Both the position numbers and the translations under genes were made by a program. 64,000 bases of DNA, taken from the IMG/VR virus record IMGVR_UViG_3300012943_000001, positions 103,743 to 167,742 of that record; one strand, 5' to 3'. The notes beneath the pieces are model-generated. The model saw nothing but the letters and a program-made list of their open reading frames with translations, made no database searches and had not been told where the DNA came from. Within the stretch, counting starts at the first letter, position 1. Every line of letters starts with the position of its first letter. This DNA is from a virus (taxonomy: Duplodnaviria > Heunggongvirae > Uroviricota > Caudoviricetes). Below, one piece after another: positions 15,463 to 46,465 of this stretch.

Positions 15463-16866
15463 ATGCACGCTATGCCTATCCCTAGCGAATCCTTCGGAAC
15501 AAGTCCGTTCGACTCTAAGTTCGACGTAGTTAAATCTGTCACGCTTCAAATGACGGACTTTGCCGAGGGAAACAACAAGTTCTATCAGATGGAGCTGCAC
15601 AAGGGCGATAGCGGCAAGTTCCGCATCTTCTCCGCGTACGGACGCACGGGCAAGACTCCAGTGAAGGAAGAGCGTATTCCTCGTGACGAAGCTCACGCTA
15701 TCTCTGAGATGGATAAGATTCAAAAGTCCAAAGAGAAAAAGGGCTATCGCAAAGTAGATATGGTTGCGACGAACCACGGTACGGACGTAGGCAACGCGAA
15801 GATTCTTTCTCAGGATTTCAAGAAGGATAAGGTAGTTGCCCCAAACAAGAATCAAAAGGCCGCGATTCAGCTAGAAGCCTCCATTGTGGGATTGGTAGAA
15901 CGCCTGTACTCTGAGGCTGGACAAAGCTGTAAGAGCCAGCTTAACGGCTCCCTGCAATCGACCGCATCCAATCCTCTAGGTACGCTTTCTCTTACTCAGC
16001 TTCAGGAAGGTAAAGACATCATTCTGAAAGTTAACGCTCTTCTGTCACAGAAGAAAAGCCTTATCGACTCTATTGAGCCAGAGGTCGTCGAACTTTCAAA
16101 CGCGTTCTATAGTGCAATCCCCCAAGAAATCCCATTGCGTCCAAAAGATGCAGACGGGCGTAAGGAATGGATTCGTAGATTTGCTTTGAACAACTCAAAG
16201 ATTCTTGACGAAAAGAATGACTTGCTAGACCTGCTTGGCGACGTTAAAGGCATGATGGCTGGTTTCGCCACAGACGATATCGCCGTCAAGTATAACGAGC
16301 TGAATTGCAAAGTCGAAGTCGCTCCTACCGACAAGTTCCGTTGGGCCAAGGACTATTTGGAGTCTTCCCAGTCCCGCCACCACAATTGGAAGCTTATCGT
16401 TAAGAAAGTTTGGCAGATTGAAAGCAAAGGACAGAGCGGCTATCGTAGTACGGTAGAGAAGATTGGAAATGTCCAGCAACTTTTCCACGGCTCCCGTGCA
16501 TCAAATATCATGGGTATCTGCAAAAAAGGCTTGCTATTACGTCCGCCCGGTGCATATGTTACCGGAAGCATGTTCGGCAACGGTCTTTACTTTGCCGACC
16601 AATCCACAAAATCTTCTCAGTACGCCACCGCACGTTTCGGAGGAAGCTCCTCAAGCTATGGTAACTCGTATTTCATGTTCATTGCGGATGTCGCATTGGG
16701 CAAGATTATGAAGTATCAAGACTCCCAAAGCTATCTACAGAAAGCTCCTCACGGCTACGACTCTGTACAGGGCGAAAAGGGCCGCAGTCTAGTACACAAC
16801 GAATTTATCGTCTACGATATCAAACAAAACGAACTCAAATACTTAATCGAATTCGAACAAAGGTAA
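15463..16866 (+). CDS. poly(ADP-ribose) polymerase-like protein (WGR + PARP catalytic domain)
   Basis: H-Y-E triad: FHGSRASN, GNGLYFADQS, NEFIVYD; WGR-like FYQMELH...FSAYGRTGKT at the N-term. Confidence 0.8.
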   Translation: MHAMPIPSESFGTSPFDSKFDVVKSVTLQMTDFAEGNNKFYQMELHKGDSGKFRIFSAYGRTGKTPVKEERIPRDEAHAISEMDKIQKSKEKKGYRKVDMVATNHGTDVGNAKILSQDFKKDKVVAPNKNQKAAIQLEASIVGLVERLYSEAGQSCKSQLNGSLQSTASNPLGTLSLTQLQEGKDIILKVNALLSQKKSLIDSIEPEVVELSNAFYSAIPQEIPLRPKDADGRKEWIRRFALNNSKILDEKNDLLDLLGDVKGMMAGFATDDIAVKYNELNCKVEVAPTDKFRWAKDYLESSQSRHHNWKLIVKKVWQIESKGQSGYRSTVEKIGNVQQLFHGSRASNIMGICKKGLLLRPPGAYVTGSMFGNGLYFADQSTKSSQYATARFGGSSSSYGNSYFMFIADVALGKIMKYQDSQSYLQKAPHGYDSVQGEKGRSLVHNEFIVYDIKQNELKYLIEFEQR

Positions 16867-17845: not shown

Positions 17846-18337
17846 ATGATTACAGAACGAATCGGTAACCTTCTGACGGACCCGCAAGTGAACGTCATCG
17901 CTCACCAGTGTAATTGTTTCCATACAATGGGAGGAGGTATCGCTCGCATCATCGCTCAGATGTATCCTGAAGCCGTCCGTGCAGATAATGAAACCCCTCA
18001 CGGTGACGAAAGTAAGATGGGTACGTTCTCCGTAGCGACTGTACAGAGAGGCGATAAAAAAATCCGCATCGTCAATATGTATGGTCAATACAAGACGAGC
18101 AATACGGAGCGTATGACCCGATACGACGCTCTACACGACGCTCTTTTCGAGCTTGAGGCAACGATTCGTGCCAGCGTTAACGTAGACCAATACATTGTAG
18201 GAGTTCCCTACGGATTGGGCTCGGCTCTTGGCGGAGGTTCGTGGACCATTGTGCGGGCAATCCTCGAACGCATCTTTGGTAAATCGCCCGTCCAACTTCA
18301 TATTATTCGACTTCCTGATGTTCCAGACCTCGAATAA
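17846..18337 (+). CDS. macro domain protein (ADP-ribose binding / hydrolase)
   Basis: NVIAHQCNCFHTMGGGIARII matches the macro VNAAN...GGGV core. Confidence 0.75.
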   Translation: MITERIGNLLTDPQVNVIAHQCNCFHTMGGGIARIIAQMYPEAVRADNETPHGDESKMGTFSVATVQRGDKKIRIVNMYGQYKTSNTERMTRYDALHDALFELEATIRASVNVDQYIVGVPYGLGSALGGGSWTIVRAILERIFGKSPVQLHIIRLPDVPDLE

Positions 18338-18379: not shown

Positions 18380-19180
18380 ATGAATATCCAACTCCTCATT
18401 ATCGACCCGCAGATTGACTTCTGCGACCCCAAAGGTGCCTTATCTGTCAAAGGTGCCGACCAAGACATGGTTCGCCTCGCCGCGATGATTAAGAAGCATC
18501 ACGCTTCCATCGACGACATCCGCGTGACTCTCGACAGTCACCAGAAAATCCACATCGCCCACCCAATCTGTTGGGTTGACGCACAAGGTAAACATCCTGC
18601 CCCTTTCACCCTCATTACTGAGGCGGACGTTGCGGGTAGCAGCCCGAAGTGGAAGGCTTACAATCCAGCTTGGCAGAAACGTCAAGTTGATTACGTCAAG
18701 GCTCTCAGCACGGGTGGCCGCTACGTTCTCGTTATCTGGCCTGAGCATTGCCTTATCGGCACGCCCGGTCACGCGGTATACCCAACCCTCGGCGAAGCCC
18801 TTGCGGTATGGCAGGACGAAAACTTCGGCATGATTGACTTCGTGACCAAAGGTTCGAATCCATTCACCGAACACTATAGCGTCGTCAAAGCGGACGTTCC
18901 CGATATCGGAGACCCGACTACAAATATCAACACCAGCTTCATCAAGCGTCTTGAAGATGCGGACGTGATTTTGGTTGCGGGTGAAGCTCTCTCGCACTGT
19001 GTCGCTAATTCGGTTCGCGATATCGCACTCGAATTCGGCGACGAACATATCAAGAAATTCGTTCTTCTTGAAGACGCAACAAGTCCAGTCACCGGCTTTG
19101 AAAAGATGGCCGACGACTTCGTGACAGAGATGAAGGCGAAGGGTATGCAAATCGCCAAGACCACGACCTTCTTCAAGTAA
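18380..19180 (+). CDS. pncA: isochorismatase-family amidase, nicotinamidase (PncA)-like
   Basis: IIDPQIDFC (Asp), SHCVANS (Cys) triad elements; 266 aa. Confidence 0.65.
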   Translation: MNIQLLIIDPQIDFCDPKGALSVKGADQDMVRLAAMIKKHHASIDDIRVTLDSHQKIHIAHPICWVDAQGKHPAPFTLITEADVAGSSPKWKAYNPAWQKRQVDYVKALSTGGRYVLVIWPEHCLIGTPGHAVYPTLGEALAVWQDENFGMIDFVTKGSNPFTEHYSVVKADVPDIGDPTTNINTSFIKRLEDADVILVAGEALSHCVANSVRDIALEFGDEHIKKFVLLEDATSPVTGFEKMADDFVTEMKAKGMQIAKTTTFFK

Positions 19181-20303: not shown

Positions 20304-20326
20304 GGGGAGGGTAACCTCCCCTTTTT
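20304..20326 (+). terminator. rho-independent terminator
   Basis: GGGGAGGgtaaCCTCCCC + TTTTT. Confidence 0.7.
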
Positions 20327-21139: not shown

Positions 21140-21327
21140 CGATAGGCAAATACAAAGTCTACCCATTCGAGAAGGTCGAAACGATTGACGGCGTTTGGGG
21201 AGACTGGAAATGCGAGATAGAAGACACTGCGGGCAACCTCAGCATCGGCTATATCGAAGGCGACGGTGGCCTGTTCGAAGAATCTACACTCAAAGACGAA
21301 AACGGAAATCTTATTCCTCATGATTAA
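21136..21327 (+). CDS. hypothetical small protein
   Basis: 63 aa, ATGA overlap with the upstream gene. Confidence 0.4.
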   Translation: MTIGKYKVYPFEKVETIDGVWGDWKCEIEDTAGNLSIGYIEGDGGLFEESTLKDENGNLIPHD

Positions 21328-22174
21328 CACAGACTCATACTATGAAATTGGGGCCGGGCATGTCTTCAATCAAGACTATGCTGATAGCGGTTTCTTTACT
21401 ACTCCCGAGAATGGGAAGAAGTATTACTATGCCGTGGTATCTGATGGATGCTCTGGGTCGAAGGATAGTGACATCGGGGCTCGCTGGATGGCGAAGAATT
21501 TCCCTATCGTTGCACGTGCGGCTCTTATGGGTGAGACAAGCGTCTCTCTACGTGAGAACATCGAGCATGTTCTTGTAGAGAAGATGAAGTCTGAAGAGCG
21601 GCTTTGGTCGATTGCTGGCGAAGCGTACGACGCAACGCTCGTGGCGGTCATCTATGACGAGACCCTAGACGTACTTCATTCCTTCGCTTGGGGCGACGGA
21701 CATATCTTACTCGTAGCCAAAGAGGGCGTATCATTTCTTACTTCAATCAAGTATCGCTCTAACGCTCCATACTATCTATCGTATAGAGTTAGTGTAGATA
21801 GAGAGATGCGGTATGAAGAGTTTTTTGGAAACAATTATGCCGACGTTACCTACAATCTTCTTACGGACGAAAATATTGTCCGTGTTGTAGAGAAGGATGA
21901 ATTCAAAAAGAAGTTTGTGTATGACGAAGTTCCGGGGGCGTCAAAGCTTATCAAGCACGCTCTAGTTATGACCGATGGCGTAGAGACGTATCATAGAAAG
22001 TTCGATGTAGATACCACTATGTCTATGCGTAACGTCTTCAGTCAATTTTCACAATACAAAAACACTCACGGCGAGTTCGTCAAACGTAGAATGCAAAAGG
22101 TCAAGTCCTTCGCAGAGAAGGAAGAGTGGCAGCACTTTGACGACATCAGCGTGGCAACAATTAGTCTGGTATGA
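21320..22174 (+). CDS. PP2C/SpoIIE-like Ser/Thr phosphatase
   Basis: YYAVVSDGCSGSKDSD and LVMTDGVETY resemble PP2C metal-binding motifs; start taken at the ATG overlapping the upstream stop (ATGATTAA). Confidence 0.55.
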   Translation: MINTDSYYEIGAGHVFNQDYADSGFFTTPENGKKYYYAVVSDGCSGSKDSDIGARWMAKNFPIVARAALMGETSVSLRENIEHVLVEKMKSEERLWSIAGEAYDATLVAVIYDETLDVLHSFAWGDGHILLVAKEGVSFLTSIKYRSNAPYYLSYRVSVDREMRYEEFFGNNYADVTYNLLTDENIVRVVEKDEFKKKFVYDEVPGASKLIKHALVMTDGVETYHRKFDVDTTMSMRNVFSQFSQYKNTHGEFVKRRMQKVKSFAEKEEWQHFDDISVATISLV

Positions 22175-23049
22175 GCGACCACAAACCAATTCATTTTCAC
22201 GTCTACGACCCATCTACCTCTTTCTTCAAGTCGAGCAAGAACGATGCGGCCAAAAGATTCGTAGTGCTCTGTAACAATTCAGAGAACTGTGAGCTTCATA
22301 AGAAAGGCACGTGCATACTCAGAAGCTTTTGGGGAGGCGGATGTCCGTATGGATATTGTTCTAATGAAGAAGGCTATACAAGAAGAGCCAGAGGGTTTGG
22401 GACATGGATTCGCAAGCAGGGAGAGATGTATAAAGGCGTCCCGTCTATTTCATCGCCTCCGAAGAAGCTTGCGGTGGTGGGAGACTACATCTATATCCCG
22501 TACGCTCATGCAAACATGAACAAGGAAGTTCCTTTCCTTGGTCATGGTGGGTTTATGTCCTCTGGTAGCAACTTCATTAAGAAAGAGGATTGGACCATAC
22601 ATAATATTGCGAAGATAGTCGCGTTCCATCCACAAGCTTTGATGGGAGGCTATATCGACTCATATTGGAAAGAGGAAGTCCCCCTTTTCCTTTCTCACCT
22701 TGAAGAGGTAATGCCTGACATGTATAAAGAGTTGCTGGCGACATATCCGCAATTCATAAAAAGCTTCAATCTCCTCGCTCCCAAAAACTACGTAGGCCGC
22801 AAAGCTAAAGTAAAAACTCTTTCGCCATGTACGTTCCGTACTAAAGGTTCTCAAGACGGGGACTATAAAGTTACGTGGATTTGGGACGGGAAAGTATTGA
22901 AGACGGCTTCGGATTCGGTCTACCAGTCCATATGGGGAAGTGTCAATAAATATGAGAGTTTGGAAATGACGCTCATACCTAATGACGACTCCGTTATCGA
23001 AATCACAGACAACGCTCAGGTAAATGCTGGCACCGTATTCGTTGACTGA
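22171..23049 (+). CDS. Cys-rich hypothetical protein
   Basis: CNNSENCELHKKGTCILRSFWGGGCPYGYC cluster. Confidence 0.5.
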   Translation: MSDHKPIHFHVYDPSTSFFKSSKNDAAKRFVVLCNNSENCELHKKGTCILRSFWGGGCPYGYCSNEEGYTRRARGFGTWIRKQGEMYKGVPSISSPPKKLAVVGDYIYIPYAHANMNKEVPFLGHGGFMSSGSNFIKKEDWTIHNIAKIVAFHPQALMGGYIDSYWKEEVPLFLSHLEEVMPDMYKELLATYPQFIKSFNLLAPKNYVGRKAKVKTLSPCTFRTKGSQDGDYKVTWIWDGKVLKTASDSVYQSIWGSVNKYESLEMTLIPNDDSVIEITDNAQVNAGTVFVD

Positions 23050-25166
23050 TGTCTTTATTCAATAAAATACTTTCCGCATACGGGATACGTAAAGGCGTAG
23101 GGAAATCTTATTTCAATTTCAATCCATATCTACCGCCCCCACCGATACCAATGCCGCCAGTGGCGACGCCAATGCCCACACCGCCTCCTCCTATTACGCC
23201 AATAGGCAAGCCGTACAATCCTTGGGCGAATGTTAACGTAACTTTTAATCCATACACTCTAAATAATAAAAAGAATCTCCCGGCGTTAGGCGTGTCCGGT
23301 GCGTTCCCTACCTGCATGGTTACGGGTCTGTCATCGCCAAGTAGTGGAAGTTTTTGGCACACCTACGGCAGAAGTAATCCCATTTATCCTGCACCAGTTA
23401 GCTCCGAACTAGAAGCCGAAGAGTTCCAAACCCATTTTAGTAGAAACACCTCAGCACGAATTCCAACCAATATGCTAAACAACTTAACAGTTAACGGAAA
23501 GAAGCTTTCCCTTAAGCAGTCTGACTATAAAGCGTCGGGTGGTGAAGGCGTCGTGTATGTAAAGCACGGAGAAGCTTTCAAGATTTATCATAATCCAAGT
23601 AAGATGATTCCTGTAGGTAAGATTCAGGAACTCAAAGAACTTGCACTTGGAAATGTCTTGGGACCAACCGATATTATCTACGAAGGTAATGCTCCAGTTG
23701 GATTCGTCATGAAGTACGTAAGCGATTCAGAGTTCCTGTGCAAGTTGTTCACGAAGGGATTCCGTGACAAGAATCAAATTACGCACGACAATATTAACGG
23801 GCTCGTACTGAATATGCAGAAGACTTTGGAGCATATTCATACTAAGAAAATTTTGGTGGTAGATTACAACGAGATGAATTTCTTGGTGAACAACGCCTAC
23901 GACACCGTATATCATATCGACGTAGACTCATGGCAGACTCCATCATACCCAGCCACGGCAATCATGGAGTCGATTCGTGACCGCTCTATCAAGAATAATA
24001 AGTGGACTGAAGGCAGTGATTGGTTTAGCTTCGCCGTCGTTGCATTTCAATTGTACTTGGGATGTCATCCGTATAAAGGTCGTCATCCAGACTTTGCTCC
24101 AAAGGATTGGCTGAAGATGATGGACCAGAACGTAAGCATCTTCAATAAGCAATGCAGGCTTCCGCCCGCATCACAGACGCTTGACGCTATCCCAAAAGGT
24201 CACCTCAAATGGTTTGAAGGCGTCTTTGAACGTGGAGAAAGAAATGCTCCGCCTCTTCCAGACCAAATGCCAGCCTTGGCGAGACTCAAGCCTACTATTG
24301 TTCAGTCGAACGCGAAGTTTGATATTTCGGGCGTACGCAAGTATAGTTCGAACCTTCAGATGATTCGCTTCATTGACGGAATTTGCTATGCTCTTACTGA
24401 GACGGGAGTTTATGGAGACTCTAAAGAGTTCGCCACATTCGCAAAAGAAACCGGCTACGTTTCTCGTAGGACGGTTAAAGACATCGTGCCCGTACAGGGA
24501 GACTCGCCACTTATTATTGAGTGGAATAAGATTGCGGCAAAGCTTACCTACAAGACTTTTGCTGGCGTAGAGGTCGGAGCGATTGAGTCGAATGGCTTTT
24601 TCGTTTCCAATCGTTGCGTCTATACCGTGCTTCGTGACAGTTTGATTGAGGTCTCGTTTATAAATAAAGGCGTCAAGATAAACGCTCCGCAGCAATCAGT
24701 GGCGAACATCTTCCATAATCATCAAGTCTTTGACGGATTCGTAGCACAGAACATGCTTAACACTTGCCGCTTTGCCATTCCAGTGAAGGCGGGTCTGTGT
24801 GTCAATCTCCATATGAAGGAGCTGGACAAGTACCGCATCATTGACGGCAAGTATGAATCGGGCGTTCTTATCGTCATCGTCGAAAAATCGGGTAAGTACG
24901 ATAGGTTCACTTTCATCCTCGACAAAACCTTCAGCAGCTATACATATCGGAAGGAAGAGGGCGTGATTGCTTACGACATCAACTTCGCAGTTAAAGACAA
25001 CGGAGTGTGCGTCGCAACCAATGACGACAAGATTGAAGCTTTTGTTACCTACGACAAGGTAAAGCTTTTGGAGTCGCCACTAGACGACAACGAACCTTTG
25101 GTGGCGTTTAAGAACGACATTTACTTCTACGCGGGGGACGGCTTATTCAAGCTGGCATCTAAATAA
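23049..25166 (+). CDS. eukaryote-like (Hanks-type) protein kinase with a Pro-rich N-terminus and a C-terminal domain
   Basis: G-loop ASGGEGVVYVK, Lys AFKIY, catalytic loop VVDYNEMNFLV, DVDS (DFG-like). Confidence 0.6.
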   Translation: MSLFNKILSAYGIRKGVGKSYFNFNPYLPPPPIPMPPVATPMPTPPPPITPIGKPYNPWANVNVTFNPYTLNNKKNLPALGVSGAFPTCMVTGLSSPSSGSFWHTYGRSNPIYPAPVSSELEAEEFQTHFSRNTSARIPTNMLNNLTVNGKKLSLKQSDYKASGGEGVVYVKHGEAFKIYHNPSKMIPVGKIQELKELALGNVLGPTDIIYEGNAPVGFVMKYVSDSEFLCKLFTKGFRDKNQITHDNINGLVLNMQKTLEHIHTKKILVVDYNEMNFLVNNAYDTVYHIDVDSWQTPSYPATAIMESIRDRSIKNNKWTEGSDWFSFAVVAFQLYLGCHPYKGRHPDFAPKDWLKMMDQNVSIFNKQCRLPPASQTLDAIPKGHLKWFEGVFERGERNAPPLPDQMPALARLKPTIVQSNAKFDISGVRKYSSNLQMIRFIDGICYALTETGVYGDSKEFATFAKETGYVSRRTVKDIVPVQGDSPLIIEWNKIAAKLTYKTFAGVEVGAIESNGFFVSNRCVYTVLRDSLIEVSFINKGVKINAPQQSVANIFHNHQVFDGFVAQNMLNTCRFAIPVKAGLCVNLHMKELDKYRIIDGKYESGVLIVIVEKSGKYDRFTFILDKTFSSYTYRKEEGVIAYDINFAVKDNGVCVATNDDKIEAFVTYDKVKLLESPLDDNEPLVAFKNDIYFYAGDGLFKLASK

Positions 25167-25167
25167 A

Positions 25168-25539
25168 GTGTACAGGCTGACAGGTACGATTAGGTATGGT
25201 AACTCATGGGCGTGGGTGGAATGTCCTTATGACGTAGGGGCATACTACCGGCATATCGTCAAGTGGTTGAGCGGGAAACAACTCAGTTCTCCACTTAACG
25301 GGGCTCATATCACTCTGGTTGCTGGAAAATACGAAGCCAACGCGAGCACGCATCCAATGTGGAGGGCTCACGAAGGCAAGCCCATAAACTTTACTTACGG
25401 AGTCCTTTCCGGCATTGAAAGCTATTACTGGCTCACAATCGAGGAAGATTCTGAGTTGAGAAATTTTCGTCGCGAATTAGATTTACCGCCAGAGCTAAAG
25501 TGGCCCTTTCACCTAACGATTGGGAAAGAAAATCCTTGA
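25168..25539 (+). CDS. 2H phosphoesterase superfamily protein (LigT/CPDase/Acb1-like)
   Basis: Two H-x-T-x motifs: GAHITLV and PFHLTIG; 123 aa. Confidence 0.6.
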   Translation: MYRLTGTIRYGNSWAWVECPYDVGAYYRHIVKWLSGKQLSSPLNGAHITLVAGKYEANASTHPMWRAHEGKPINFTYGVLSGIESYYWLTIEEDSELRNFRRELDLPPELKWPFHLTIGKENP

Positions 25540-25568
25540 CTTTTGAAAACGACCGTAAAAGCTCGTCC
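25536..25568 (+). promoter_or_regulatory. conserved CTTGACTTTTGAAAAC-type promoter upstream of pncB
   Basis: ccTTGACTtttgaaaacgaccgtaaaagctcg. Confidence 0.45.
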
Positions 25569-25570
25569 GC

Positions 25571-26794
25571 ATGATTATCACTAGTCTCCTCGACCTCGAC
25601 CTGTATAAGCTGACGGTAGGCCAAGTCATCTTCAAAAACTTCCGCTTCGTCCGGGCGAAGTACCGCATGACGGTTCGCAATGGCAAGCAGATTAACTTCT
25701 GGCATGGAGACATCGCTCGCCAGATGGAAGTTGAGATTAAAGCTCTTGAAAACTTGAGTCTACAACCTGACGAGGCAGACTATCTTCGCAAGTTGGGTTT
25801 GGGATTCGAAGAGTCGTATCTACGTTTTCTTTCGAACAAGCCTATGGAAGGTTGCTTCGTTAGATACGTTCATCAAGAAAGCATAAAGTTTACAGACAAC
25901 GACTACGTTCCTGAAGTACATGGAGAATGGTGCAGAGCTATGCTTTACGAAATCTTCTGTCTTAGTATCGCGAATGAAATTTTCGCTAGGCAGTATTGCA
26001 GGTTCAATAATGTCAAATACGATTGGCTTACAGAGGCGGGAGAGGTTCGCCTTGCAAAGAAGATTGCATATCTTCAAGAACATAAAGCGGGAAACTACTG
26101 TAAACATCCGATGTCGATTTCGGAGTTCGGTACGCGTCGCCGGTTGAGTCATGCTTGGCAAGCTCATGTCGTCAAGGAACTCTATAGCAGCGGAGTAATC
26201 AATGCCACGAGTAACGTTTACTTCGGAAAGCTATTCGACATTCCTGTTCGCGGCACTTTCGGCCACGAGTTCACAATGGGTATGCAAGCCTTAACCCGCG
26301 TGCAAGACAGTCAGAAAGAAGCGTTGTGGCTTTGGCATAGAGAGTGGAATGGAAAGCTTTCACTTGCTTTAGACGATACGCTTGGCGATGCGAAGTTCGT
26401 CCAAGATTTTGATAAGGACTTAGCTATGGCTTATTCGGGCCTTCGTCACGATTCGGGCGAGCCAGAGGCGTGGACGGAAGACCGCATCACTATGTATCAT
26501 AGGCTCGACGTGAATCCAGAACAGAAGACTCTTTTGTACTCAGACGGGCTGGACGTTCATAAAGCGGTAGCACTACGCAACCTTGTGGGCTTACGAGCCA
26601 TTCCGAAGTTCGGTATCGGTACGAATTTTACCAACGATACGTTCTCGCCTGTCCCGCAGGTTGTCATGAAGATTGTTCATTGCAACGGTCAACATGTTGC
26701 AAAGCTTTCGAACAATCCCGCCAAGGCTTGCTGCGATGACCCTGAATATCTCCGCTACATCAAGCACATTTCGGGAGTGAAAGATTCAGCTTGA
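25571..26794 (+). CDS. pncB: nicotinate phosphoribosyltransferase
   Basis: N-term SLLDLDLYKLTVGQV typical of NAPRTase; 407 aa. Confidence 0.8.
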   Translation: MIITSLLDLDLYKLTVGQVIFKNFRFVRAKYRMTVRNGKQINFWHGDIARQMEVEIKALENLSLQPDEADYLRKLGLGFEESYLRFLSNKPMEGCFVRYVHQESIKFTDNDYVPEVHGEWCRAMLYEIFCLSIANEIFARQYCRFNNVKYDWLTEAGEVRLAKKIAYLQEHKAGNYCKHPMSISEFGTRRRLSHAWQAHVVKELYSSGVINATSNVYFGKLFDIPVRGTFGHEFTMGMQALTRVQDSQKEALWLWHREWNGKLSLALDDTLGDAKFVQDFDKDLAMAYSGLRHDSGEPEAWTEDRITMYHRLDVNPEQKTLLYSDGLDVHKAVALRNLVGLRAIPKFGIGTNFTNDTFSPVPQVVMKIVHCNGQHVAKLSNNPAKACCDDPEYLRYIKHISGVKDSA

Positions 26795-26822
26795 CTTTCC
26801 TAGAACGATTTTCATCCTCCTA
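26791..26822 (+). promoter_or_regulatory. conserved CTTGACTTTCC-type promoter upstream of nadE
   Basis: gcTTGACTttcctagaacgattttcatcc. Confidence 0.45.
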
Positions 26823-26826
26823 ACCC

Positions 26827-28545
26827 ATGAAAGTTCTCCTCGCCCAGCTTAATCCCGTCGTAGGTGACCTCGAAGGCAACTTTGCCAAGGTCCGCGAAGT
26901 CATTCTGAAGCACGCGGGCAGTCATGATTTGATTGTCTTTCCCGAGTTGACCCTCACTGGCTACCCGCCAAACGACCTGCTTCTCCGTAAGGGATTCGTG
27001 GACGAACAACTCGTCTACGTAGACAAGGTTCGCAAGCTTTCCTACCGTACGCCCGAATGCACCATCCTCATTGGTGCCGTGACGAACAATGAAGAGGTGG
27101 GTAAGCCTCTTCGCAACTCCGCCCTTGGGTTTAACAACGGACATCGTATCGTCACCTATCACAAGCAACTCCTCCCTACCTATAATATCTTCGACGAGAA
27201 TCGTTATTTTGAACCGGGCAATGGAGATGGTTGCGTCTTCCATATCAATACGAAGAAACACGGCAAGGTTGTCTTGGGTCTTCTTATTTGCGAAGACTGT
27301 TGGAATGATGAAGCTGTGTGCGACGCACCACTCTATCCAACCAATCCTGTTCAGAAGGTATTCGAGAACGAGTTCGACCTTCCTAAAGTACAGGCCGTCA
27401 TCACTCTCAACGCTTCCCCTTCGGACGTAGGCAAGCATTCGTATCGCTACACTATGTATTCGACTTTATCGGAGAAGTGTGGCGTGCCGTTCGTCTATGT
27501 TAATTCGGTAGGTGGGCAAGATTCGCTCGTGTTCGATGGACACAGTTTTGTTGTGGATGGCAAGTCGATTTGGTACGCCAAAGGATTTGTTGAAGACCTA
27601 TGGAGTGCGGAGATTCTGGTGCCACAGCCAAACATGCCCGCCCTTCAAGTCCCGCAGTATCATCGCGAGATGCTTATCATTGAGCATTTGAAGCTCGGCC
27701 TCAAAGACTATGTTACCAAGAACGGTTTTCAGAAGGTTGTTGTAGGTAGCTCGGGCGGCATTGATAGTGCCGTCGTACTCATGATTGCGAAGGAAGCCCT
27801 TGGTGCAGAGAACGTCTTTGCGGTTACTATGCCGTCGAAGTTTTCGAGTGAAGGTAGTTGGAAAGACTCGGAAGTCCTCTGTGATAACCTTGGCGTCAAG
27901 CTATACAACCGTCCAATCATCGACGAAGTTCTGGCTTCGATTGAAGCATTTAAGAAGTCGTTTGGTGTAGAGCCAAGCCGCATGACCATCGAGAATATGC
28001 AGGCCCGCATCCGTGGCCGCATCCTCATGGAGTTCAGCAATCATTTTGGTGCCCTCGTTCTATCGACTGGTAACAAATCGGAAATGAGTGTGGGTTACTG
28101 CACTATCTATGGTGACATGTGCGGTGGACTCAGCCTCATTGCAGACCTCTATAAGATGGAAGTCTATGCGGTCGCCAAGTTCCATAACGAGAATCATAGC
28201 GAGCCAATCATTCCTAAAGACATCGTGGACAAAGCCCCTTCGGCTGAACTCTGGGAAGGTCAGAAAGACACTGACAGCCTGCCTCCATATCCAGTCCTCG
28301 ACGCAGTTCTAAAGCTTTATTTGGAGCGTGACCTCATGTCGTACGAAGAGATTCAAGAGGCGAAGCTCCTTATCGAGAACATGAGCCTGAAGGATATCAA
28401 ACGAATCCTCAAGATGACGGACAACGCAGAGTTCAAACGTCGTCAGGCCGCACCTGTCATCCGTATTCATAAGCGTGCGTTCGGATTCGGTCGTAATCTA
28501 CCAATCACCCAACGCTACAAGGTCAGCTACGAAAACGTACTGTGA
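26827..28545 (+). CDS. nadE: glutamine-dependent NAD+ synthetase (nitrilase + NadE domains)
   Basis: MKVLLAQLNP nitrilase start; SGGIDSAVV PP-loop; 572 aa. Confidence 0.85.
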   Translation: MKVLLAQLNPVVGDLEGNFAKVREVILKHAGSHDLIVFPELTLTGYPPNDLLLRKGFVDEQLVYVDKVRKLSYRTPECTILIGAVTNNEEVGKPLRNSALGFNNGHRIVTYHKQLLPTYNIFDENRYFEPGNGDGCVFHINTKKHGKVVLGLLICEDCWNDEAVCDAPLYPTNPVQKVFENEFDLPKVQAVITLNASPSDVGKHSYRYTMYSTLSEKCGVPFVYVNSVGGQDSLVFDGHSFVVDGKSIWYAKGFVEDLWSAEILVPQPNMPALQVPQYHREMLIIEHLKLGLKDYVTKNGFQKVVVGSSGGIDSAVVLMIAKEALGAENVFAVTMPSKFSSEGSWKDSEVLCDNLGVKLYNRPIIDEVLASIEAFKKSFGVEPSRMTIENMQARIRGRILMEFSNHFGALVLSTGNKSEMSVGYCTIYGDMCGGLSLIADLYKMEVYAVAKFHNENHSEPIIPKDIVDKAPSAELWEGQKDTDSLPPYPVLDAVLKLYLERDLMSYEEIQEAKLLIENMSLKDIKRILKMTDNAEFKRRQAAPVIRIHKRAFGFGRNLPITQRYKVSYENVL

Positions 28546-28910
28546 ATAAACTCAGGGAAGCTAAGAGGCTCGTCAGGTCCGCAAAGACCAAAGCGGATTT
28601 GAAAGCTTTAGGATTTAGACAGACCCGGGTCTTTAATAGTACGGTGGACTTTATCTACATTCACCATGAGCTTCAAGCCGTGGTGAAAGAGTCGTGGATT
28701 GTAGGGGAACGCCCTCCACGTCGCTTACGAATTCCGACTGAGAGATTTTTCTGTCCAGCATTCAACAGGTTGGTAATACTACAACCCTTTGCAGATACAA
28801 GGGAAGGTGGTAGAGCTTTAGACCTACTGAGAGTTTCCTATCTCAGTGCCGACCCAAAGTCTTCGAATGCAGCTTGGTTTGACGGCAAACCCGTTTACAT
28901 CGACTGGTAA
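28542..28910 (+). CDS. hypothetical protein
   Basis: 122 aa, 4-bp overlap with the upstream gene. Confidence 0.5.
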   Translation: MNKLREAKRLVRSAKTKADLKALGFRQTRVFNSTVDFIYIHHELQAVVKESWIVGERPPRRLRIPTERFFCPAFNRLVILQPFADTREGGRALDLLRVSYLSADPKSSNAAWFDGKPVYIDW

Positions 28911-28913
28911 AGC

Positions 28914-28946
28914 TTGACATTCTGAAAAATTCAGCTACTCTCTGCA
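28914..28946 (+). promoter_or_regulatory. sigma70-like promoter (TTGACA) upstream of nadD
   Basis: gcTTGACAttctgaaaaattcagctactctctg. Confidence 0.4.
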
Positions 28947-28948
28947 CC

Positions 28949-29554
28949 ATGAGACGCAAAGCCATTTTGGGTGGAGCCTTTGACCCAATTCATAACGACC
29001 ATATCCGCATGGGCTACGGCATCATGTACATGGGACTGGTTAATGAAGTTCACTACACTCCTTGTTACAAACACAAGTTTGGCAAGGATATGGCAACCGT
29101 AGACCATCGTCTAGCTATGGGGTTCGAAGGTCTTCAGGAAGCAAGAAAGAAGTACGCGATGGACTTCCGACTTTCGAGAGAAGAGTTCCGAATTCAGCAC
29201 GAAGGCAGCACGTACGAATATCTAACTCAACATATTTATCCAAAGTATAAAGAAGCTCAAGACGAATACTACTTCGTCATTGGCTCTGACAACGCGGTCC
29301 AAATCGAAAAGTTTCATTGTTGGCAGGAGTTGATTAAAATTATCAACTTCATCGTTGTACGTAGAGACGGCTTTATGGCGTCGGGCAACGAATGGTTTAT
29401 GCAGAAGCCTCACCGCTTTGTTGACCTTGGGCTTGCAGGTCTTTCCTCAACTTTGATTCGCGATACGATAAAGAGTCAGGGTCATATCGGCATCAAAGAT
29501 ATGGTGCCCGAATCTGTCTACGAGTATATTACCAAGCACAATCTATACAAATGA
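28949..29554 (+). CDS. nadD: nicotinate/nicotinamide mononucleotide adenylyltransferase
   Basis: GGAFDPIHNDH (H/TxGH) motif; SDNAVQI. Confidence 0.75.
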   Translation: MRRKAILGGAFDPIHNDHIRMGYGIMYMGLVNEVHYTPCYKHKFGKDMATVDHRLAMGFEGLQEARKKYAMDFRLSREEFRIQHEGSTYEYLTQHIYPKYKEAQDEYYFVIGSDNAVQIEKFHCWQELIKIINFIVVRRDGFMASGNEWFMQKPHRFVDLGLAGLSSTLIRDTIKSQGHIGIKDMVPESVYEYITKHNLYK

Positions 29555-30081
29555 GCAAGAAAAATTACCCAATGCCTTCTATCACTGGTGACGTTATTGT
29601 ATATGACGTGTTTTACCAGAAGATTCTTCTTATCAAACGTAAGAAAGACCCGTTCGCCAATACGTGGGCTATCGTAGGCGGATTCTTCAATGCAGAGACG
29701 CATGACGAAGGCGTACAGGACGCATCGGTTGAGGCGGCAGCTATTCGTGAGCTGAAGGAAGAGACCAATATCGACCTCGCACAAATCACGCCTTTAGGCG
29801 GATGCACGTTCCGCTTTCTCACGCTCCAAGACGCTCCCGGTCGTGACCCTCGTGGCCGCGTCGTAACTGCGGTCTATACACTCCGCATTACGAGTGGACA
29901 GGTCATGGACAAGATTCGCGTGGAAGCCAAGCCGCTTGACGACGCTGAAGATATGAAGTGGTTTTCCATCTTTGAGCTTGTTGAAGAAGACAAGATTCCT
30001 TTGGCGTTTGACCATAGGGATTCGATTCGCCAACTCTTCTATCAAGAATTCGGAGGCAGACCGTGGCTGACGAAAAAGTAA
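29551..30081 (+). CDS. Nudix hydrolase (probable ADP-ribose pyrophosphatase)
   Basis: Nudix box GGFFNAETHDEGVQDASVEAAAIRELKEETNI; 4-bp overlap with nadD. Confidence 0.75.
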   Translation: MSKKNYPMPSITGDVIVYDVFYQKILLIKRKKDPFANTWAIVGGFFNAETHDEGVQDASVEAAAIRELKEETNIDLAQITPLGGCTFRFLTLQDAPGRDPRGRVVTAVYTLRITSGQVMDKIRVEAKPLDDAEDMKWFSIFELVEEDKIPLAFDHRDSIRQLFYQEFGGRPWLTKK

Positions 30082-31342: not shown

Positions 31343-32680
31343 ATGTCCCTCCGCAACTCAGATTCAGAAGGCTTCGGCTCTTCTATCAAAGACAAGTTCA
31401 AGATTGGTGCAGGCATCTTCGCGGTGCTCATCGTACTCAGTCTTTTCTTCGGTGCCATTGGTAAGAACGATGACCAAAACTGGCAAGTCCTCCAATACCC
31501 GAACGGCAACGTCCAAGTCATCAACACTCCCGGTTACTACTTGAAGTGGTTCGGCTCCGTTACGACCTATCCTCGTAACTGGCAGGTCGAATACAACGCT
31601 CATGACGGAGCGGACTGGTCCACCAAAGTGACGTTTAATGATGGTGGCTGGGCTCATATGGATTCTATCATCCGTTTTGCCTCCCCATCTGACACTGACA
31701 AGCAGCGTGCATTCCATCGTTTGTTTGCCGGTAGCGAAAAGAATGTAGAGTCTGCTGTTTGGGCTCACTTGTCTGACGCTATGAAGTCCTCTGGACCAGT
31801 AATGTCCACGTCCGAACACCAATCTGCCCGCCGCTCTGAATTCAACGCACTCGTACAAGAGCAGCTTGATAAAGGTCTCTTCGAAATGAAGAAAGTTGAG
31901 AAGCAGCTTCTTGACCAGACCGACGAAAAGGGTAAGCCAATCACGGTCTACGCCACCGAAGTCCTCGTTGACAAGGAAGGTAAGTCCCTCGTTTCTAAAA
32001 CTTCTCCTCTTACAGATTTCGGCATCAAAATTACGCAGTTCTCTATTACGGATGTCCGCTATGACGAGCAGACCGTCAAGCAGTTCGTAACAAAGAAAGA
32101 AGCGTTCCTCGCCGCAGAAAACTCCAAAGCTCAACGCGAGAAGGAAGTTCAGGAACGTCTCATGGTTACCGAAAAGGGTCTTCGTGAGAAGGCTGAAGCT
32201 GAAGCCGCAGCTAACAAGCAAAAGGCCACAGAAGTTATCAATGCCCAACGTGAGAAAGAAGTCGCCGAACTCAACGCTAACCGTGAGAAGGTCGTCGCTG
32301 AAACCAACGCCGCTCGTGAATACGCCGTCGCCAAGCTCACTAAAGAGCAGGCTGAGGTTAAGGCAAATCAAGAGCTTGAAGTTGCCCGCATCGGTCGTCA
32401 AGCCGCTGAGGAAGACGCCAAGAAGCAGATTGTCCTCGCTCAGGCCAAGAAGGAAAGCATCGCCCTCGGTGGTGCAATTACAGAGCGTGACCGCGTGCTT
32501 GCCGAAATTAGCCGCGACCGCGACGTTCAGGTTGCAGCTCAGTTGTCCAAGATTGCTACACCTTCGACCATTATCAGCGGTGGTGGAGCAAATGGTGGTG
32601 GCGATACACAGTCCACTCTCATGAACCTCGTGCTTATGAAGAGCATGGGAGTTCTCCCAGAGACGCCAGCCAAGAAGTAA
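31343..32680 (+). CDS. SPFH/band-7 (prohibitin/HflK-like) membrane protein
   Basis: N-terminal TM, SPFH core, C-terminal Ala/Glu/Lys coiled-coil repeats (AQREKEV...). Confidence 0.75.
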   Translation: MSLRNSDSEGFGSSIKDKFKIGAGIFAVLIVLSLFFGAIGKNDDQNWQVLQYPNGNVQVINTPGYYLKWFGSVTTYPRNWQVEYNAHDGADWSTKVTFNDGGWAHMDSIIRFASPSDTDKQRAFHRLFAGSEKNVESAVWAHLSDAMKSSGPVMSTSEHQSARRSEFNALVQEQLDKGLFEMKKVEKQLLDQTDEKGKPITVYATEVLVDKEGKSLVSKTSPLTDFGIKITQFSITDVRYDEQTVKQFVTKKEAFLAAENSKAQREKEVQERLMVTEKGLREKAEAEAAANKQKATEVINAQREKEVAELNANREKVVAETNAAREYAVAKLTKEQAEVKANQELEVARIGRQAAEEDAKKQIVLAQAKKESIALGGAITERDRVLAEISRDRDVQVAAQLSKIATPSTIISGGGANGGGDTQSTLMNLVLMKSMGVLPETPAKK

Positions 32681-32702
32681 GGAAAGTCTAGTTAAGTTTA
32701 CA

Positions 32703-32730
32703 AGCCGCTCAGAAATGGGCGGCTTTTTGC
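32703..32730 (+). terminator. rho-independent terminator after the SPFH gene
   Basis: AGCCGCtcagaaatggGCGGCT + TTTTG. Confidence 0.6.
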
Positions 32731-32760
32731 TTGACAAATGCCAGAGGTTACCCATAGTGA
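32731..32760 (+). promoter_or_regulatory. sigma70-like promoter (TTGACA) after a terminator
   Basis: gcTTGACAaatgccagaggttacccaTAGTGAaat. Confidence 0.4.
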
Positions 32761-32956
32761 AATCATGTTCGGAAAAGCGTCTCAAGAGATTTCCAAATAC
32801 CTCACGACAGGTATGCATCACTCGACTAACGAGGCTCAGGAACGTGTGACTCAAATCATAGAGAAATGCGTGGCTGAAGAAGCTCGAAACCATACGCCTT
32901 CAGAATTTGCTATTAAGCTTTTCCAAATTGCATCCTCACCAGACTATTCCATATGA
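32738..32956 (+). CDS. hypothetical small protein
   Basis: The first ATG lies inside the promoter -35; the true start is more likely the internal ATG ~32765. Confidence 0.35.
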   Translation: MPEVTHSEIMFGKASQEISKYLTTGMHHSTNEAQERVTQIIEKCVAEEARNHTPSEFAIKLFQIASSPDYSI

Positions 32957-33426
32957 ACTTGTTCAATATTGAAAACGCTTTCGAGCGTAATAAAGCTCGC
33001 GGTTGGCCTACAACCTATTTCGCTATCGACATCCACGATACCATCTTCAAGGGTGCGTACAAACTCGACAACCCCGGCAAGACGTTCTATCCTTGGGCCA
33101 AGGAAGTGCTCCTCAATCTAACCAACAACCCGGGCGTCTCTATCATCCTCTACACCGCCAGCCACCACGGACCTGCCAGAGATGTAGAACGGTGGCTCTA
33201 TGAGCACGGAATACGCATTCTAGACATCAACCACAACCCGGACCATCGTAGCAACGAGCTGTGCGATTTCTCCAAGAAGTTTCACTTCGACGTTCTTTTG
33301 GATGACAAGGGCGGCTTTGAAGGCTGGCATGATTGGTTCCTTATCATGCATGAGTTGAAACGCATCGGTCAATGGGTAGACGAACCTAAAGCTACTGAGT
33401 CAAAGAAGTCACTCACAAAGAATTGA
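32953..33426 (+). CDS. hypothetical protein (possible HAD-like)
   Basis: FAIDIHDTIF weakly resembles HAD motif I. Confidence 0.45.
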   Translation: MNLFNIENAFERNKARGWPTTYFAIDIHDTIFKGAYKLDNPGKTFYPWAKEVLLNLTNNPGVSIILYTASHHGPARDVERWLYEHGIRILDINHNPDHRSNELCDFSKKFHFDVLLDDKGGFEGWHDWFLIMHELKRIGQWVDEPKATESKKSLTKN

Positions 33427-33427
33427 A

Positions 33428-33460
33428 CTTGACTTTCCGAACAGCTTGTCAATACTCAAC
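33428..33460 (+). promoter_or_regulatory. conserved CTTGACTTTCCGAAC-type promoter upstream of lemA
   Basis: acTTGACTttccgaacagcttgtcaatactc. Confidence 0.5.
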
Positions 33461-33476
33461 CAGCAATCTCAAAACT

Positions 33477-34061
33477 ATGAAAGCACTCATTATCGTAGGC
33501 GTAATCGCCCTCCTCGCTGGCCTTTGGGCTATAGCTAGTTACAACGGTCTCGTCAACAAAGACGTAGAGGTTCAAGAGAAGTGGGCTCAGGTAGAAAACG
33601 TCTACCAGCGTCGCTTCGACCTCATTCCTAACTTGGTTGAAACCGTAAAAGGTGCAGCCAACTTCGAAAAGTCCACCTTCGTGGAGGTCACTGAGGCTCG
33701 TGCCAAGGTAGGCCAAATCAGCGTGGACATGAAGAATGCGGCCCCAACCGTCGAACAGTTGAAGCAATTCCAGCAAGCTCAACAAGGCTTAGGTGCGGCA
33801 ATGTCCCGCCTTATCGCAGTTGCGGAAAATTATCCACAACTCAAAGCGAACGAGAACTTCCTCGCCCTTCAGACTCAAATCGAAGGTACAGAGAATCGCA
33901 TTTCAGTTGAGCGTCGTAATTATAACACGGTCGTAGCATCATACAATAGTGCGGTCCGTCGTTTCCCCGGTAACATTTTTGCGGGCATCTTTGGCTTCCA
34001 AGTCAAGGCTCCGTTCGAGTCTGAAAAGGGTGCCGATAAAGCTCCTAAAGTTTCCTTCTAA
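33477..34061 (+). CDS. lemA: LemA family membrane protein
   Basis: TM then YNGLV...EKWAQVENVYQRRFDLIPNLVETVKG (LemA hallmark); start taken at the internal ATG after the promoter. Confidence 0.8.
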   Translation: MKALIIVGVIALLAGLWAIASYNGLVNKDVEVQEKWAQVENVYQRRFDLIPNLVETVKGAANFEKSTFVEVTEARAKVGQISVDMKNAAPTVEQLKQFQQAQQGLGAAMSRLIAVAENYPQLKANENFLALQTQIEGTENRISVERRNYNTVVASYNSAVRRFPGNIFAGIFGFQVKAPFESEKGADKAPKVSF

Positions 34062-34771
34062 TGAAGAAGTTCCTTCTAGTCCTCTCTCTGTTTTGTGCGA
34101 CGTTCGCGTTTGCAGAGACAGACCTCGCGGCCCCAACTCGCCTCTTCACTGATAAAGCCAATGTAGTGTCTTCGGACGTTGCATTGGATGTTGAAGTGAA
34201 GCTCAATCAGCTCAACGAGGCAACCACGACTGAGTTCGCGGTCTATATTGTTCCGACGCTCGACACAGAGTCCAGCTTGGAAGACTATACACAACGTACG
34301 GCTCAACGCTGGGGCACGGGCAAAGCCGACAAGAACAATGGTCTCGTACTTTTCCTGTTCGCCAAAGACAGCGAAGGTTATAAACGCATTCGTTTCGAGA
34401 CTGGATATGGACTAGAAGGTGCGTTCCCGGACGCCAAGGCAAAGCTTATCATCGAGCGTGCTATCGTTCCCCTTCTGAAGGAAGATAAGTGGAATGAGGC
34501 TGTACAGGCAGGCGTAGATGCTGCCATCGCAGAAATCAAAGGTGAGTACGAGGTTCCAAAGGCTCCAAGCAATGCCAAACTATACCTCAAGCTTGGGGCG
34601 TTCCTTTTCGGTATCTGGCTCGTTTGTATTTGCATTTGGCCTAAATATACTTGGGAGATTACTTGTATGTTCCTCGACGTACTTTTGACCTCTTCAAAGA
34701 GTAGTGGCAGCAAGGGATACTCGGGCGGAGGCGGAAGCTTCGGTGGCGGTGGAGCGTCAGGGAAAGCTTAA
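34061..34771 (+). CDS. TPM-domain (TLP18.3/YgcG-like) phosphatase-fold protein
   Basis: Signal peptide, TPM core, C-terminal TM and Gly-rich tail; TAATGA overlap with lemA. Confidence 0.75.
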   Translation: MKKFLLVLSLFCATFAFAETDLAAPTRLFTDKANVVSSDVALDVEVKLNQLNEATTTEFAVYIVPTLDTESSLEDYTQRTAQRWGTGKADKNNGLVLFLFAKDSEGYKRIRFETGYGLEGAFPDAKAKLIIERAIVPLLKEDKWNEAVQAGVDAAIAEIKGEYEVPKAPSNAKLYLKLGAFLFGIWLVCICIWPKYTWEITCMFLDVLLTSSKSSGSKGYSGGGGSFGGGGASGKA

Positions 34772-35421: not shown

Positions 35422-35895
35422 ATGACTCCAGTCCTCTATATCCTAATGCGTACCGACCTTCCTAGCATGAATGCTGGCAAGGCAATGGCTCAGGCATCGC
35501 ACGCTTCAAACGCTTTTGTTAAAATGGCGGAGGGAGACCTACATGAAATTCGTGCTCAAATGACAGAGCAATGGAAGACTGAAACCAGTCAGGGCTTTGG
35601 TACGGTTCTTGTTCTCGCAGCCACACAAAAGGAAATCGAGGATGCTGTAGAAGCGGCCAGACTCAATATGCTTATTGCGGGTCAAGTCACAGACCCAACA
35701 TACCCTTATCGAGTAGACAATATCGAAATCGCAAACCTCATTCCTACGTCTGTTGATACAGCTCCTCGCTCTGTACCTTTAGATACAAAGACTCCCGTAA
35801 CTCTCTATAGAAGAGAAGTGACTTGCGGCTTTATATTTGGCGACAAAGACGACTATGCTGGTGAGGTAGTCAAACATCTAAAGCTCCATCCATAG
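35422..35895 (+). CDS. PTH2-family peptidyl-tRNA hydrolase
   Basis: RTDLPSMNAGKAMAQASHAS matches the PTH2 R.DL...GK..AQ..HA core. Confidence 0.65.
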   Translation: MTPVLYILMRTDLPSMNAGKAMAQASHASNAFVKMAEGDLHEIRAQMTEQWKTETSQGFGTVLVLAATQKEIEDAVEAARLNMLIAGQVTDPTYPYRVDNIEIANLIPTSVDTAPRSVPLDTKTPVTLYRREVTCGFIFGDKDDYAGEVVKHLKLHP

Positions 35896-35899
35896 TTCA

Positions 35900-36781
35900 A
35901 TGAACGTAAAGTGGCTGATAGAGGACTTCGACGCGGACAACAAAATCTGGGAGACGGTCGCGGAGGTAAGACGCCTCGGCCTACCCTGTGAGATTGCTGA
36001 CTACTACAATTTCTATCTCAACGGCAACGTTGTAGAAGATGGGAAGAAGGTCTTGTCGAAGTTTCAGGATGACGATTGCGTCATCTTCCAAGGCTCCATT
36101 CAGCTCGCCCTCTGGATTAAGAGGAACAAGCCGTGGGTGCCGGGAATGTGGTTTGAACCTGAGAAGTTCAAATGCACGTACTTCTACTCGTACTTGGGTG
36201 AATTCCTATTCAATCAAGACTATATCTTTTCGACCATTGGAGAGTACAAGCGTCGTCGCGACATGTTCTACCACCTTGTTGGCAAGGATGATTGCTTGTT
36301 CATGCGTCCTGACAACGGGACGAAATCATTCACTGGTCAAATCTTTAAGAAGGAAACCCACAATACAGATTGGGCTTTCTTCGACACGTACACAAAGGCT
36401 GAAGACATTGTAGTCATTGCTCCACCAAAGCGTATTCACGCTGAGTATAGATTTGTCATAGGAGGCGACGAGATTGTAGGAGCGAGTATGTATCGCTATG
36501 AAGACAAGGCCCGCCTAATGCCGGGAGCCCCAAAGCGTGCTCATAATGTCGTCAAGGAAATCGTCAAGGTCATCAACAAAGACATGAAGATTGGAGCTAT
36601 GTATGTCGTTGACATAGCGGAAGACTACGATGACAAATACAGCCTCATGGAAATCAATTGCTTCAACTGTGCAGGTCTATACGAGACAGACAGGAAGGCG
36701 GTCGTAGCCGCAGCGAATCAACTCGCTTGGAACGAGTATCAAGAGTATATGAAGGTAGAAGAAGAGTTTTCTCAGTCTTAA
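35900..36781 (+). CDS. ATP-grasp fold enzyme (paralog 1)
   Basis: EYRFVIGGDEIVGASMYRY and MEINCFN resemble ATP-grasp B-loop / Mg-binding E-x-N. Confidence 0.55.
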   Translation: MNVKWLIEDFDADNKIWETVAEVRRLGLPCEIADYYNFYLNGNVVEDGKKVLSKFQDDDCVIFQGSIQLALWIKRNKPWVPGMWFEPEKFKCTYFYSYLGEFLFNQDYIFSTIGEYKRRRDMFYHLVGKDDCLFMRPDNGTKSFTGQIFKKETHNTDWAFFDTYTKAEDIVVIAPPKRIHAEYRFVIGGDEIVGASMYRYEDKARLMPGAPKRAHNVVKEIVKVINKDMKIGAMYVVDIAEDYDDKYSLMEINCFNCAGLYETDRKAVVAAANQLAWNEYQEYMKVEEEFSQS

Positions 36782-36784
36782 GAG

Positions 36785-44154: not shown

Positions 44155-44155
44155 A

Positions 44156-44479
44156 ATGATTCCCGACAAGCTCCTTAATCTCAGCTATACCAAGCACGCG
44201 ATTAGGGAAGCTTGTTGCGAACGTTTTGGTAGTATAGAGCATCGTCCCAAGAATTTTATAAAGGTGGGTTGCAAGGCGGTGACCGAAAGTGCAGAGAAGC
44301 CTAACGTTATCAAAGCTACCTATATCTATGACGACTGGCGAGATGTCATTTTAGTCATAGACACCATAACTAAAACCGTAATTACAAACTACCTCAAACC
44401 CGCCCAAAACAAAGGCGTATTCAAAGGTCGATTTCGAATTCAGCCAAAGCATGAGCTACAAACTTTTTCTCGACGATGA
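44156..44479 (+). CDS. hypothetical protein
   Basis: 107 aa. Confidence 0.45.
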   Translation: MIPDKLLNLSYTKHAIREACCERFGSIEHRPKNFIKVGCKAVTESAEKPNVIKATYIYDDWRDVILVIDTITKTVITNYLKPAQNKGVFKGRFRIQPKHELQTFSRR

Positions 44480-45262: not shown

Positions 45263-45263
45263 A

Positions 45264-46414: not shown

Positions 46415-46442
46415 CTTTCCCGCCATTCTCGGTACTCTTAAC
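46411..46442 (+). promoter_or_regulatory. conserved CTTGACTTTCC-type promoter
   Basis: gcTTGACTttcccgccattctcggTACTCTtaa. Confidence 0.45.
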
Positions 46443-46465
46443 GTTTTACCTAATCAAATCTTACT

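Follow-up and report, generated by a model that had tools for sequence, protein, structure and literature searches.

Known 2H phosphoesterases are enzymes of 140 to 230 amino acids (aa). Pfam family PF22547 (2H-SAK) is the computationally defined 2H phosphoesterase domain of Swiss Army Knife (SAK) RNA-repair proteins, whose domains were reportedly defined by Burroughs and Aravind in Nucleic Acids Research (NAR) in 2016. To our knowledge, no PF22547 member has a solved structure or characterized function, and our literature search found no papers on 2H-SAK, PF22547, or HAD_SAK. Here, we analyzed a 64,000-nucleotide stretch of a Caudoviricetes genome (IMG/VR record IMGVR_UViG_3300012943_000001, positions 103,743 to 167,742; hereafter the window), which is itself jumbo-phage-like and carries 42 tRNA genes. 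We focused on one of its genes, encoding a stand-alone minimal 2H phosphoesterase of the 2H-SAK-like clade (Table 1).

The assignment of this 123-aa protein to the 2H superfamily is solid, given a confident two-unit structural model and the matches of its homologues to the Pfam families 2H-SAK, LigT_PEase, and 2_5_RNA_ligase2. The AlphaFold2 model, for which the input was an alignment of 70 homologues sharing 24 to 63% identity with the query (alignment A2), reached a predicted local distance difference test (pLDDT) score of 96.4 and a predicted template modeling (pTM) score of 0.89. It shows a bilobed, pseudo-symmetric α+β fold of two β-β-α-β units, each closing with a central strand that starts at the histidine of an H-x-T motif, which is the arrangement that characterizes the superfamily. 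Both motifs can be read straight from the sequence (HITL at residues 47 to 50 and HLTI at residues 115 to 118), and two H-h-[ST]-h motifs arise by chance in 0.06% of shuffles of the protein. The original prediction, made from the sequence alone, had named both motifs and called the protein a minimal 2H enzyme; the structure prediction that it proposed yielded a 2H fold, the superfamily call is borne out by this fold, by bridging to PF22547 and LigT, and by invariant histidines of the catalytic type, and the label “minimal” is fair for a protein shorter than the known enzymes. Relative to LigT/ThpR and the bacterial and archaeal RNA 2',3'-cyclic phosphodiesterases (PH0099, 1vgj; drCPDase, 5h7f; YjcG, 2d4g), the window protein is ∼60 residues shorter, has lost peripheral helices and strands, and shows 13 to 17% sequence identity.

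Across the 70-sequence alignment, H47, R101, H115, and G119 are invariant, H47 also being invariant in a second alignment (A1). Near-invariant positions are G6, Y10, W14, Y26, Y27, P42, W65, E103, and T117, the last conserved in at least 90% of the sequences, and R101 is likely a phosphate-binding residue. The open reading frame (ORF) has no possible upstream extension. Metagenomes contain a 123-aa protein that is 99% identical to it and ∼10 homologues at 55 to 64% identity, so that the gene can be taken as genuine and constrained. Searches of PDB sequences, with the single protein and then with the 70-sequence profile, returned no true relative; matches to a phosphoketolase and to capsid VP1 were rejected as spurious. 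The best viral structural matches of the model, in BFVD, were uncharacterized proteins from a marine phage and from giant viruses.

Judged by sequence, the window protein is a divergent member of the already catalogued 2H-SAK family. On its own it matches PF22547 with 16.1 bits (E = 0.014), below the Pfam gathering threshold of 27 bits, with residues 42 to 121 aligned to profile positions 33 to 119 of 124; a second match is to a PHROG without assigned function (E = 1e-13). Its relatives bridge the gap: when the 70 aligned homologues were scanned singly, 68 matched 2H-SAK (best E = 1.2e-9), 10 matched LigT_PEase, and 4 matched 2_5_RNA_ligase2, and NCBIfam models gave nothing meaningful. A profile search with alignment A1 retrieved 334 relatives, many already annotated as PF22547, and the UniRef name of one homologue is [quoted passage not shown] The window protein resembles PF22547 in length (123 aa versus a profile of 124 positions) and in its two H-x-T/S motifs. 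It differs in scoring below threshold, in standing alone rather than within a multidomain SAK protein, and in its setting beside kinase and NAD genes, HAD-SAK not being its neighbor in this clade.

An exhaustive profile search recovered 1,555 family representatives at 50% identity, including 1,069 at E ≤ 1e-10, nearly all of them stand-alone proteins of 120 to 170 aa. Longer members, judged by eye, had no recognizable extra domain, with the exception of one fusion described below. The 22 matching records among GenBank phages all belong to jumbo phages of 337 to 595 kb; carriers include Bacillus phage G (gp116), RsoM2USA_56, GAP32_178, CBB, Munch, 7t3, Serratia BF, and Erwinia SNUABM phages, and every homologue is annotated “hypothetical.” When 185,579 bacterial and archaeal species genomes were scanned with the patterns of a subgroup alignment (A3), a single locus was found, on a contig of a metagenome-assembled genome. 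To the extent that the A3 subgroup patterns capture it, the family is thus effectively restricted to phages. Megablast of window positions 23000 to 30000 gave no match in the phage collection, which therefore holds no close sequenced relative.

For the gene neighborhoods, we collected 84 loci (alignment A1 gave 9 and alignment A3 gave 60), which fell into 29 lineages when their 2H proteins were clustered at 60% identity. BLAST clustering of the neighbors gave partners shared by at most 3 of the 29 lineages. A Pfam census of the three genes on either side found GGACT, an AIG2-like gamma-glutamyl cyclotransferase, as the commonest family among immediate neighbors (4 lineages), then YqeY (3 lineages) and DUF2828/DUF7788, HAD_SAK_2, HD_4, and AAA_33 (2 lineages each). 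Iterated hidden Markov model (HMM) searches within 6 kb on either side detected YqeY and NUDIX genes in 7 lineages each, macro genes in 5, HAD_SAK_2 and CCA-adding enzyme genes in 4 each, PHA02142-type RNA ligase genes in 3, and PTH2, Thg1, DUF2828, and HPF genes in 2 each. NAPRTase was present in 1 lineage, that of the window. At least one tRNA/RNA-related partner occurs in 14/29 lineages, and NUDIX or macro occurs in 9/29. The most telling gene orders are RNA ligase, DUF2828, 2H in GAP32-, BF-, and Munch-like phages; Metallophos, HAD_SAK_2, 2H, with Thg1 nearby (lineage L019); and PTH2, 2H, HAD_SAK_2, CCA-adding enzyme (L022). Outside the clade of the window, the family's strongest associations are therefore with tRNA/RNA-repair genes, and NUDIX and macro genes come second.

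The linkage to YqeY is the most useful new lead, since a tRNA-targeted role can be tested directly through it, and we did not find it in the literature searched. YqeY was found in 7 of 29 lineages against ∼1 expected (p ∼5e-5, on the rough assumption of one YqeY gene per 350-kb genome), and the enrichment of NUDIX and macro was marginal (p ∼0.03 to 0.05, with assumed copy numbers); these values ignore shared ancestry among lineages and are indicative only. In three lineages (L021, L043, and L063), YqeY lies two genes downstream of the 2H gene, 300 to 400 nucleotides (nt) away, and the triad of 2H gene, ∼115-aa ORF, and YqeY is conserved (6001-7208 in L021; in L043 and L063, the 2H gene is at 6001 with YqeY ∼350 nt further on). 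One protein, P0134, is a single-polypeptide 2H-YqeY fusion whose C-terminal half matches the YqeY structure 8xjg in PDB (E = 1.6e-9). In GatB and in Deinococcus GlnRS, modules of the YqeY type bind tRNA (PMC2811023, PMC1865053).

Our preferred reading, which we hold tentatively and at somewhat less than even confidence, is that the protein is a 2',3'-cyclic phosphodiesterase of the 2H-SAK clade that heals cleaved tRNA or RNA ends. Comparative-genomic work assigns jumbo-phage 2H enzymes a matching RNA-repair role (PMC7824862, PMC9503650). In line with the established 2H mechanism, known from LigT/ThpR, CPDase, and CNPase, H47 and H115 would serve as the general acid and the general base that open a 2',3'-cyclic phosphate to a phosphomonoester by hydrolysis, independently of metal. 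The most likely substrate would be the 2',3'-cyclic-phosphate end that metal-independent anticodon nucleases or RNase effectors of the host leave on tRNA or other RNA. Once the cyclic phosphate is open, a HAD-SAK, HD, or metallophosphatase enzyme would remove the phosphate, and the end would be either resealed by phage RNA ligases or rebuilt by a CCA-adding enzyme.

One feature of the window calls for caution about RNA-end healing and is the reason why we hold it at no more than this confidence. A separate RNA-repair cassette (43042-48889) already supplies candidate cyclic-phosphate processors, and the 2H gene lies 18 kb away, among NAD/ADP-ribose genes. No HAD_SAK was found in a Pfam scan of the window ORFs, which covered most plus-strand ORFs of at least 100 aa in 64 kb of a >200-kb genome. 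The cassette enzymes are candidates either to share a pathway with the 2H enzyme or to compete with it in function.

Table 1. Features of the 2H gene, its surroundings, and the RNA-repair cassette in the window
Feature	Position	Strand	Remarks
PARP, eukaryote-like	15463-16866		WGR, PARP regulatory, and catalytic domains; E = 7e-35
Macro-like gene	17846-18337		1 kb downstream of PARP
Isochorismatase-like gene, possibly nicotinamidase PncA	18380-19180		Weak match, E = 0.004
GC-rich bidirectional hairpin GGGGAGGGTAACCTCCCC, then T-run	20304-20321		Only convincing intrinsic terminator in 20-32 kb
PP2C phosphatase, 292-aa unknown, and 705-aa kinase module	21266-25166		Upstream of 2H gene
Ser/Thr-kinase-like gene	23049-25166	+	705 aa; proline-rich N terminus and kinase core; Pkinase E = 8e-7
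2H phosphoesterase gene	25168-25539	+	123 aa; GTG start, TGA stop
First H-x-T-x motif, H47-I-T-L	25306-25317	+	Start of strand β3 (residues 47-51; strand from model)
Codons for residues 101-103, R101 first	25468-25476	+	Helix 95-103 from model
Second H-x-T-x motif, H115-L-T-I, then G119	25510-25521	+	Start of last strand (115-121)
NAPRTase	25571-26794	+	Pfam
Gln-dependent NadE	26827-28545	+	Pfam
Unknown	28542-28910	+	122 aa
NMNAT-like cytidylyltransferase	28949-29554	+	Pfam
NUDIX	29551-30081	+	Pfam
Rnl1-like ligase	43042-44154	+	Pfam
Unknown	Within 43042-48889		107 aa; after Rnl1-like ligase
cREC, cyclic-phosphate-processing receiver domain	44451-44813	+	E = 3e-22
HD	44810-45262	+	Pfam
Metallophos (calcineurin-like phosphoesterase)	45105-45938	+	Pfam
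P-loop (AAA_33) kinase	45935-46414	+	Pfam
Second RNA ligase, PHA02142-type	47861-48889	+	Pfam

The immediate surroundings of the gene had been described as the head of an NAD operon, near macro and PARP genes. The NAPRTase gene does begin 31 nt downstream, but the 2H gene sits within a long co-directional string of genes, and its start codon lies 1 nt past the stop of the Ser/Thr kinase gene, indicating translational coupling to the kinase. We scanned for promoters and terminators and obtained counts not above shuffled expectation, save for the strong terminator at the GC-rich hairpin, so that no operon boundary could be defined; the scan found no promoter or terminator signal between the 2H gene and its upstream genes. 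The hairpin probably marks the start of a long transcription unit containing the 2H gene. In three relatives (L004, L091, and L092), with 2H proteins 55 to 63% identical to that of the window, the order kinase, 2H, NAPRTase, NadE, NUDIX is kept, and the kinase and 2H genes share 4 nt where the one stops and the other starts; the complete module of PP2C phosphatase, 292-aa protein, and kinase is kept in L004 and L091. We conclude that the 2H gene is tied to the kinase at least as tightly as to the NAD genes. The Pfam census of neighbors showed no kinase beside the 2H gene outside this clade, and adjacency to NAD genes was likewise confined to it (1/29 lineages). The placement between the kinase/PP2C module and the NAD+ salvage block is thus lineage specific and does not define the function of the family. 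Proximity to PARP and macro genes holds roughly: PARP lies 8.3 kb upstream, and the macro-like gene has a weak Pfam match (E = 0.04), its orthologue in L004 being recovered by a phage macro profile.

Together, the isochorismatase-like gene and the block from NAPRTase to NUDIX (18380-19180 and 25571-30081) make up a phage-encoded, near-complete Preiss-Handler NAD+ route, whose order is kept in the three related metagenomic phages. Phage NAD+ pathways based on Nampt or on Adps/Namat differ from this route. Another NAD/ADP-ribose-processing module occurs near the start of the window (152-1836), where a YAcAr/SLOG-NADAR fusion (290 aa) is followed by a PfkB-family sugar kinase.

The main alternative to RNA-end healing, which we consider unlikely though it fares best among the rivals, is that the protein is a phosphodiesterase acting on ADP-ribose 1'',2''-cyclic phosphate (Appr>p), as the original prediction had offered. 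The substrate would stem from NAD+-dependent removal of RNA 2'-phosphates (KptA/Tpt1 or sirtuin-type) or from other ADP-ribose chemistry, a macro domain and NUDIX would complete its breakdown, and the adjacent salvage genes would replace the NAD+ consumed. The recurrence of NUDIX and macro genes near family members is consistent with this proposal, but their enrichment is marginal, and the adjacency to NAD genes, being restricted to a single lineage, does not extend to the family. Moreover, no KptA/Tpt1 (PTS_2-RNA/KptA) was detected among the scanned window ORFs, and the YqeY fusion and the pairing with HAD_SAK_2 point to a tRNA or RNA substrate. The plant and yeast Appr>p CPDases (Arabidopsis thaliana, 1fsi/1jh6; yeast Cpd1) are ∼180 aa long versus 123 aa here and have no sequence-level relationship to the window protein.

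Less probable again is another 2H activity or a noncatalytic role, whether as a 2'-5' ligase/phosphodiesterase, as a nucleotide- or RNA-binding adaptor like the 2H domain of AKAP18, or as a partner or regulator of the coupled kinase. The kinase is not a neighbor in other clades, and the conservation of both histidines, T117, R101, and G119 in a family of ∼1,500 diverged representatives argues for catalysis.

The original prediction had also proposed an Acb1-like protein. In that case, an anti-defense nuclease would degrade cyclic GMP-AMP (cGAMP) or cyclic tri-AMP (cA3) of the cyclic oligonucleotide-based antiphage signaling system (CBASS), or the cyclic oligoadenylates (cOA) of type III CRISPR systems, alongside NAD+ replenishment against NADase effectors. 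We regard this as improbable to a still greater degree, and membership in an Acb1-like family did not hold. Aligned by hhalign to six Acb1 sequences (T4 57B and five diverse homologues), the profile of the 2H family reached 18% probability over one β-α-β(HxT) lobe, and against T4 Acb1 alone it reached 0.5%. The lobes paired were the C-terminal one of the window protein, with its HLTI motif, and the N-terminal HxT lobe of Acb1, a pattern that reflects superfamily-level pseudo-symmetry rather than orthology. To bind its substrate, Acb1 relies on a C-terminal lid (residues 145 to 152, including W147) and on E141, which contacts adenine (PMC9117128). The window protein ends at residue 123, 8 residues past H115, and so has neither a C-terminal lid nor equivalents of W147 and E141; most family members end 6 to 10 residues past the second motif. 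Acb1 models in BFVD matched the 2H model at E = 0.2 to 0.8, and no homologue matched any Acb1 model in Pfam or NCBIfam. The 2H protein thus has no family-level sequence relationship to Acb1 (T4 gp57B; FBB1 Acb1, PDB 7t26/7t27). The genomic settings differ as well, Acb1 adjoining the tail-fiber chaperone gene 57A and the neighbors of the 2H family being RNA-repair genes, not anti-defense genes.

Most doubtful of all is that this clade's 2H enzyme, whose gene is coupled to the kinase and leads into a complete NAD+ salvage block, was recruited for anti-defense. It would then remove either an immune signal made of nucleotides or a cyclic-phosphate by-product that is toxic, while its neighbors rebuild the NAD+ pool; its targets may be a cyclic oligonucleotide, a 2',3'-cyclic nucleotide monophosphate (2',3'-cNMP) alarmone, or an ADP-ribose-derived cyclic phosphate, and, if true, this would be a combined signal-erasing and NAD+-refilling module distinct from Acb1 and from known NAD-reconstitution pathways.

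Several further genes of the window concern tRNA. Between the NAD+ block and the RNA-repair cassette, a PTH2-type peptidyl-tRNA hydrolase gene is followed by two paralogous R2K-clade ATP-grasp genes (35422-37525). The 42 tRNA genes form an array at 52658-63857 with interspersed HNH/HTH genes. Three of the calls may contain introns or may be wrong: one at 56717-56791, for which a two-base anticodon is given as undetermined; tRNA-Ile(tat) at 58718-58809, with a length of 92 nt; and tRNA-Thr(tgt) at 61084-61170, with a length of 87 nt. Elsewhere, the window encodes polyamine synthesis (AdoMet decarboxylase and spermidine synthase, 5734-7583), a DNA polymerase III alpha subunit (3089-5734), and a ClpB-like double-AAA chaperone (8393-10879). 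In the region 31343-34771, an antisense ORF of 509 aa (31364-32893) covers nearly the whole gene for a 445-aa SPFH/Band-7 protein, and this gene is followed by a LemA and TPM-domain pair (33423-34771).

These results provide a name and a confident fold for a gene annotated as hypothetical in every deposited jumbo-phage genome that carries it, within a family of ∼1,500 representatives at 50% identity that is confined almost entirely to very large phages, and they correct an attractive but unsupported Acb1 interpretation. With the 2H gene beside a Preiss-Handler NAD+ pathway, this phage clade lends itself to studies of the joint organization of RNA repair, ADP-ribose clean-up, and NAD+ replenishment. 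The 2H/YqeY linkage recurs, once as a fusion, and suggests a testable model in which a YqeY module that binds tRNA would bring the minimal cyclic phosphodiesterase to cleaved tRNAs. If true, such delivery would add a step to the resistance of jumbo phages against anticodon nucleases.
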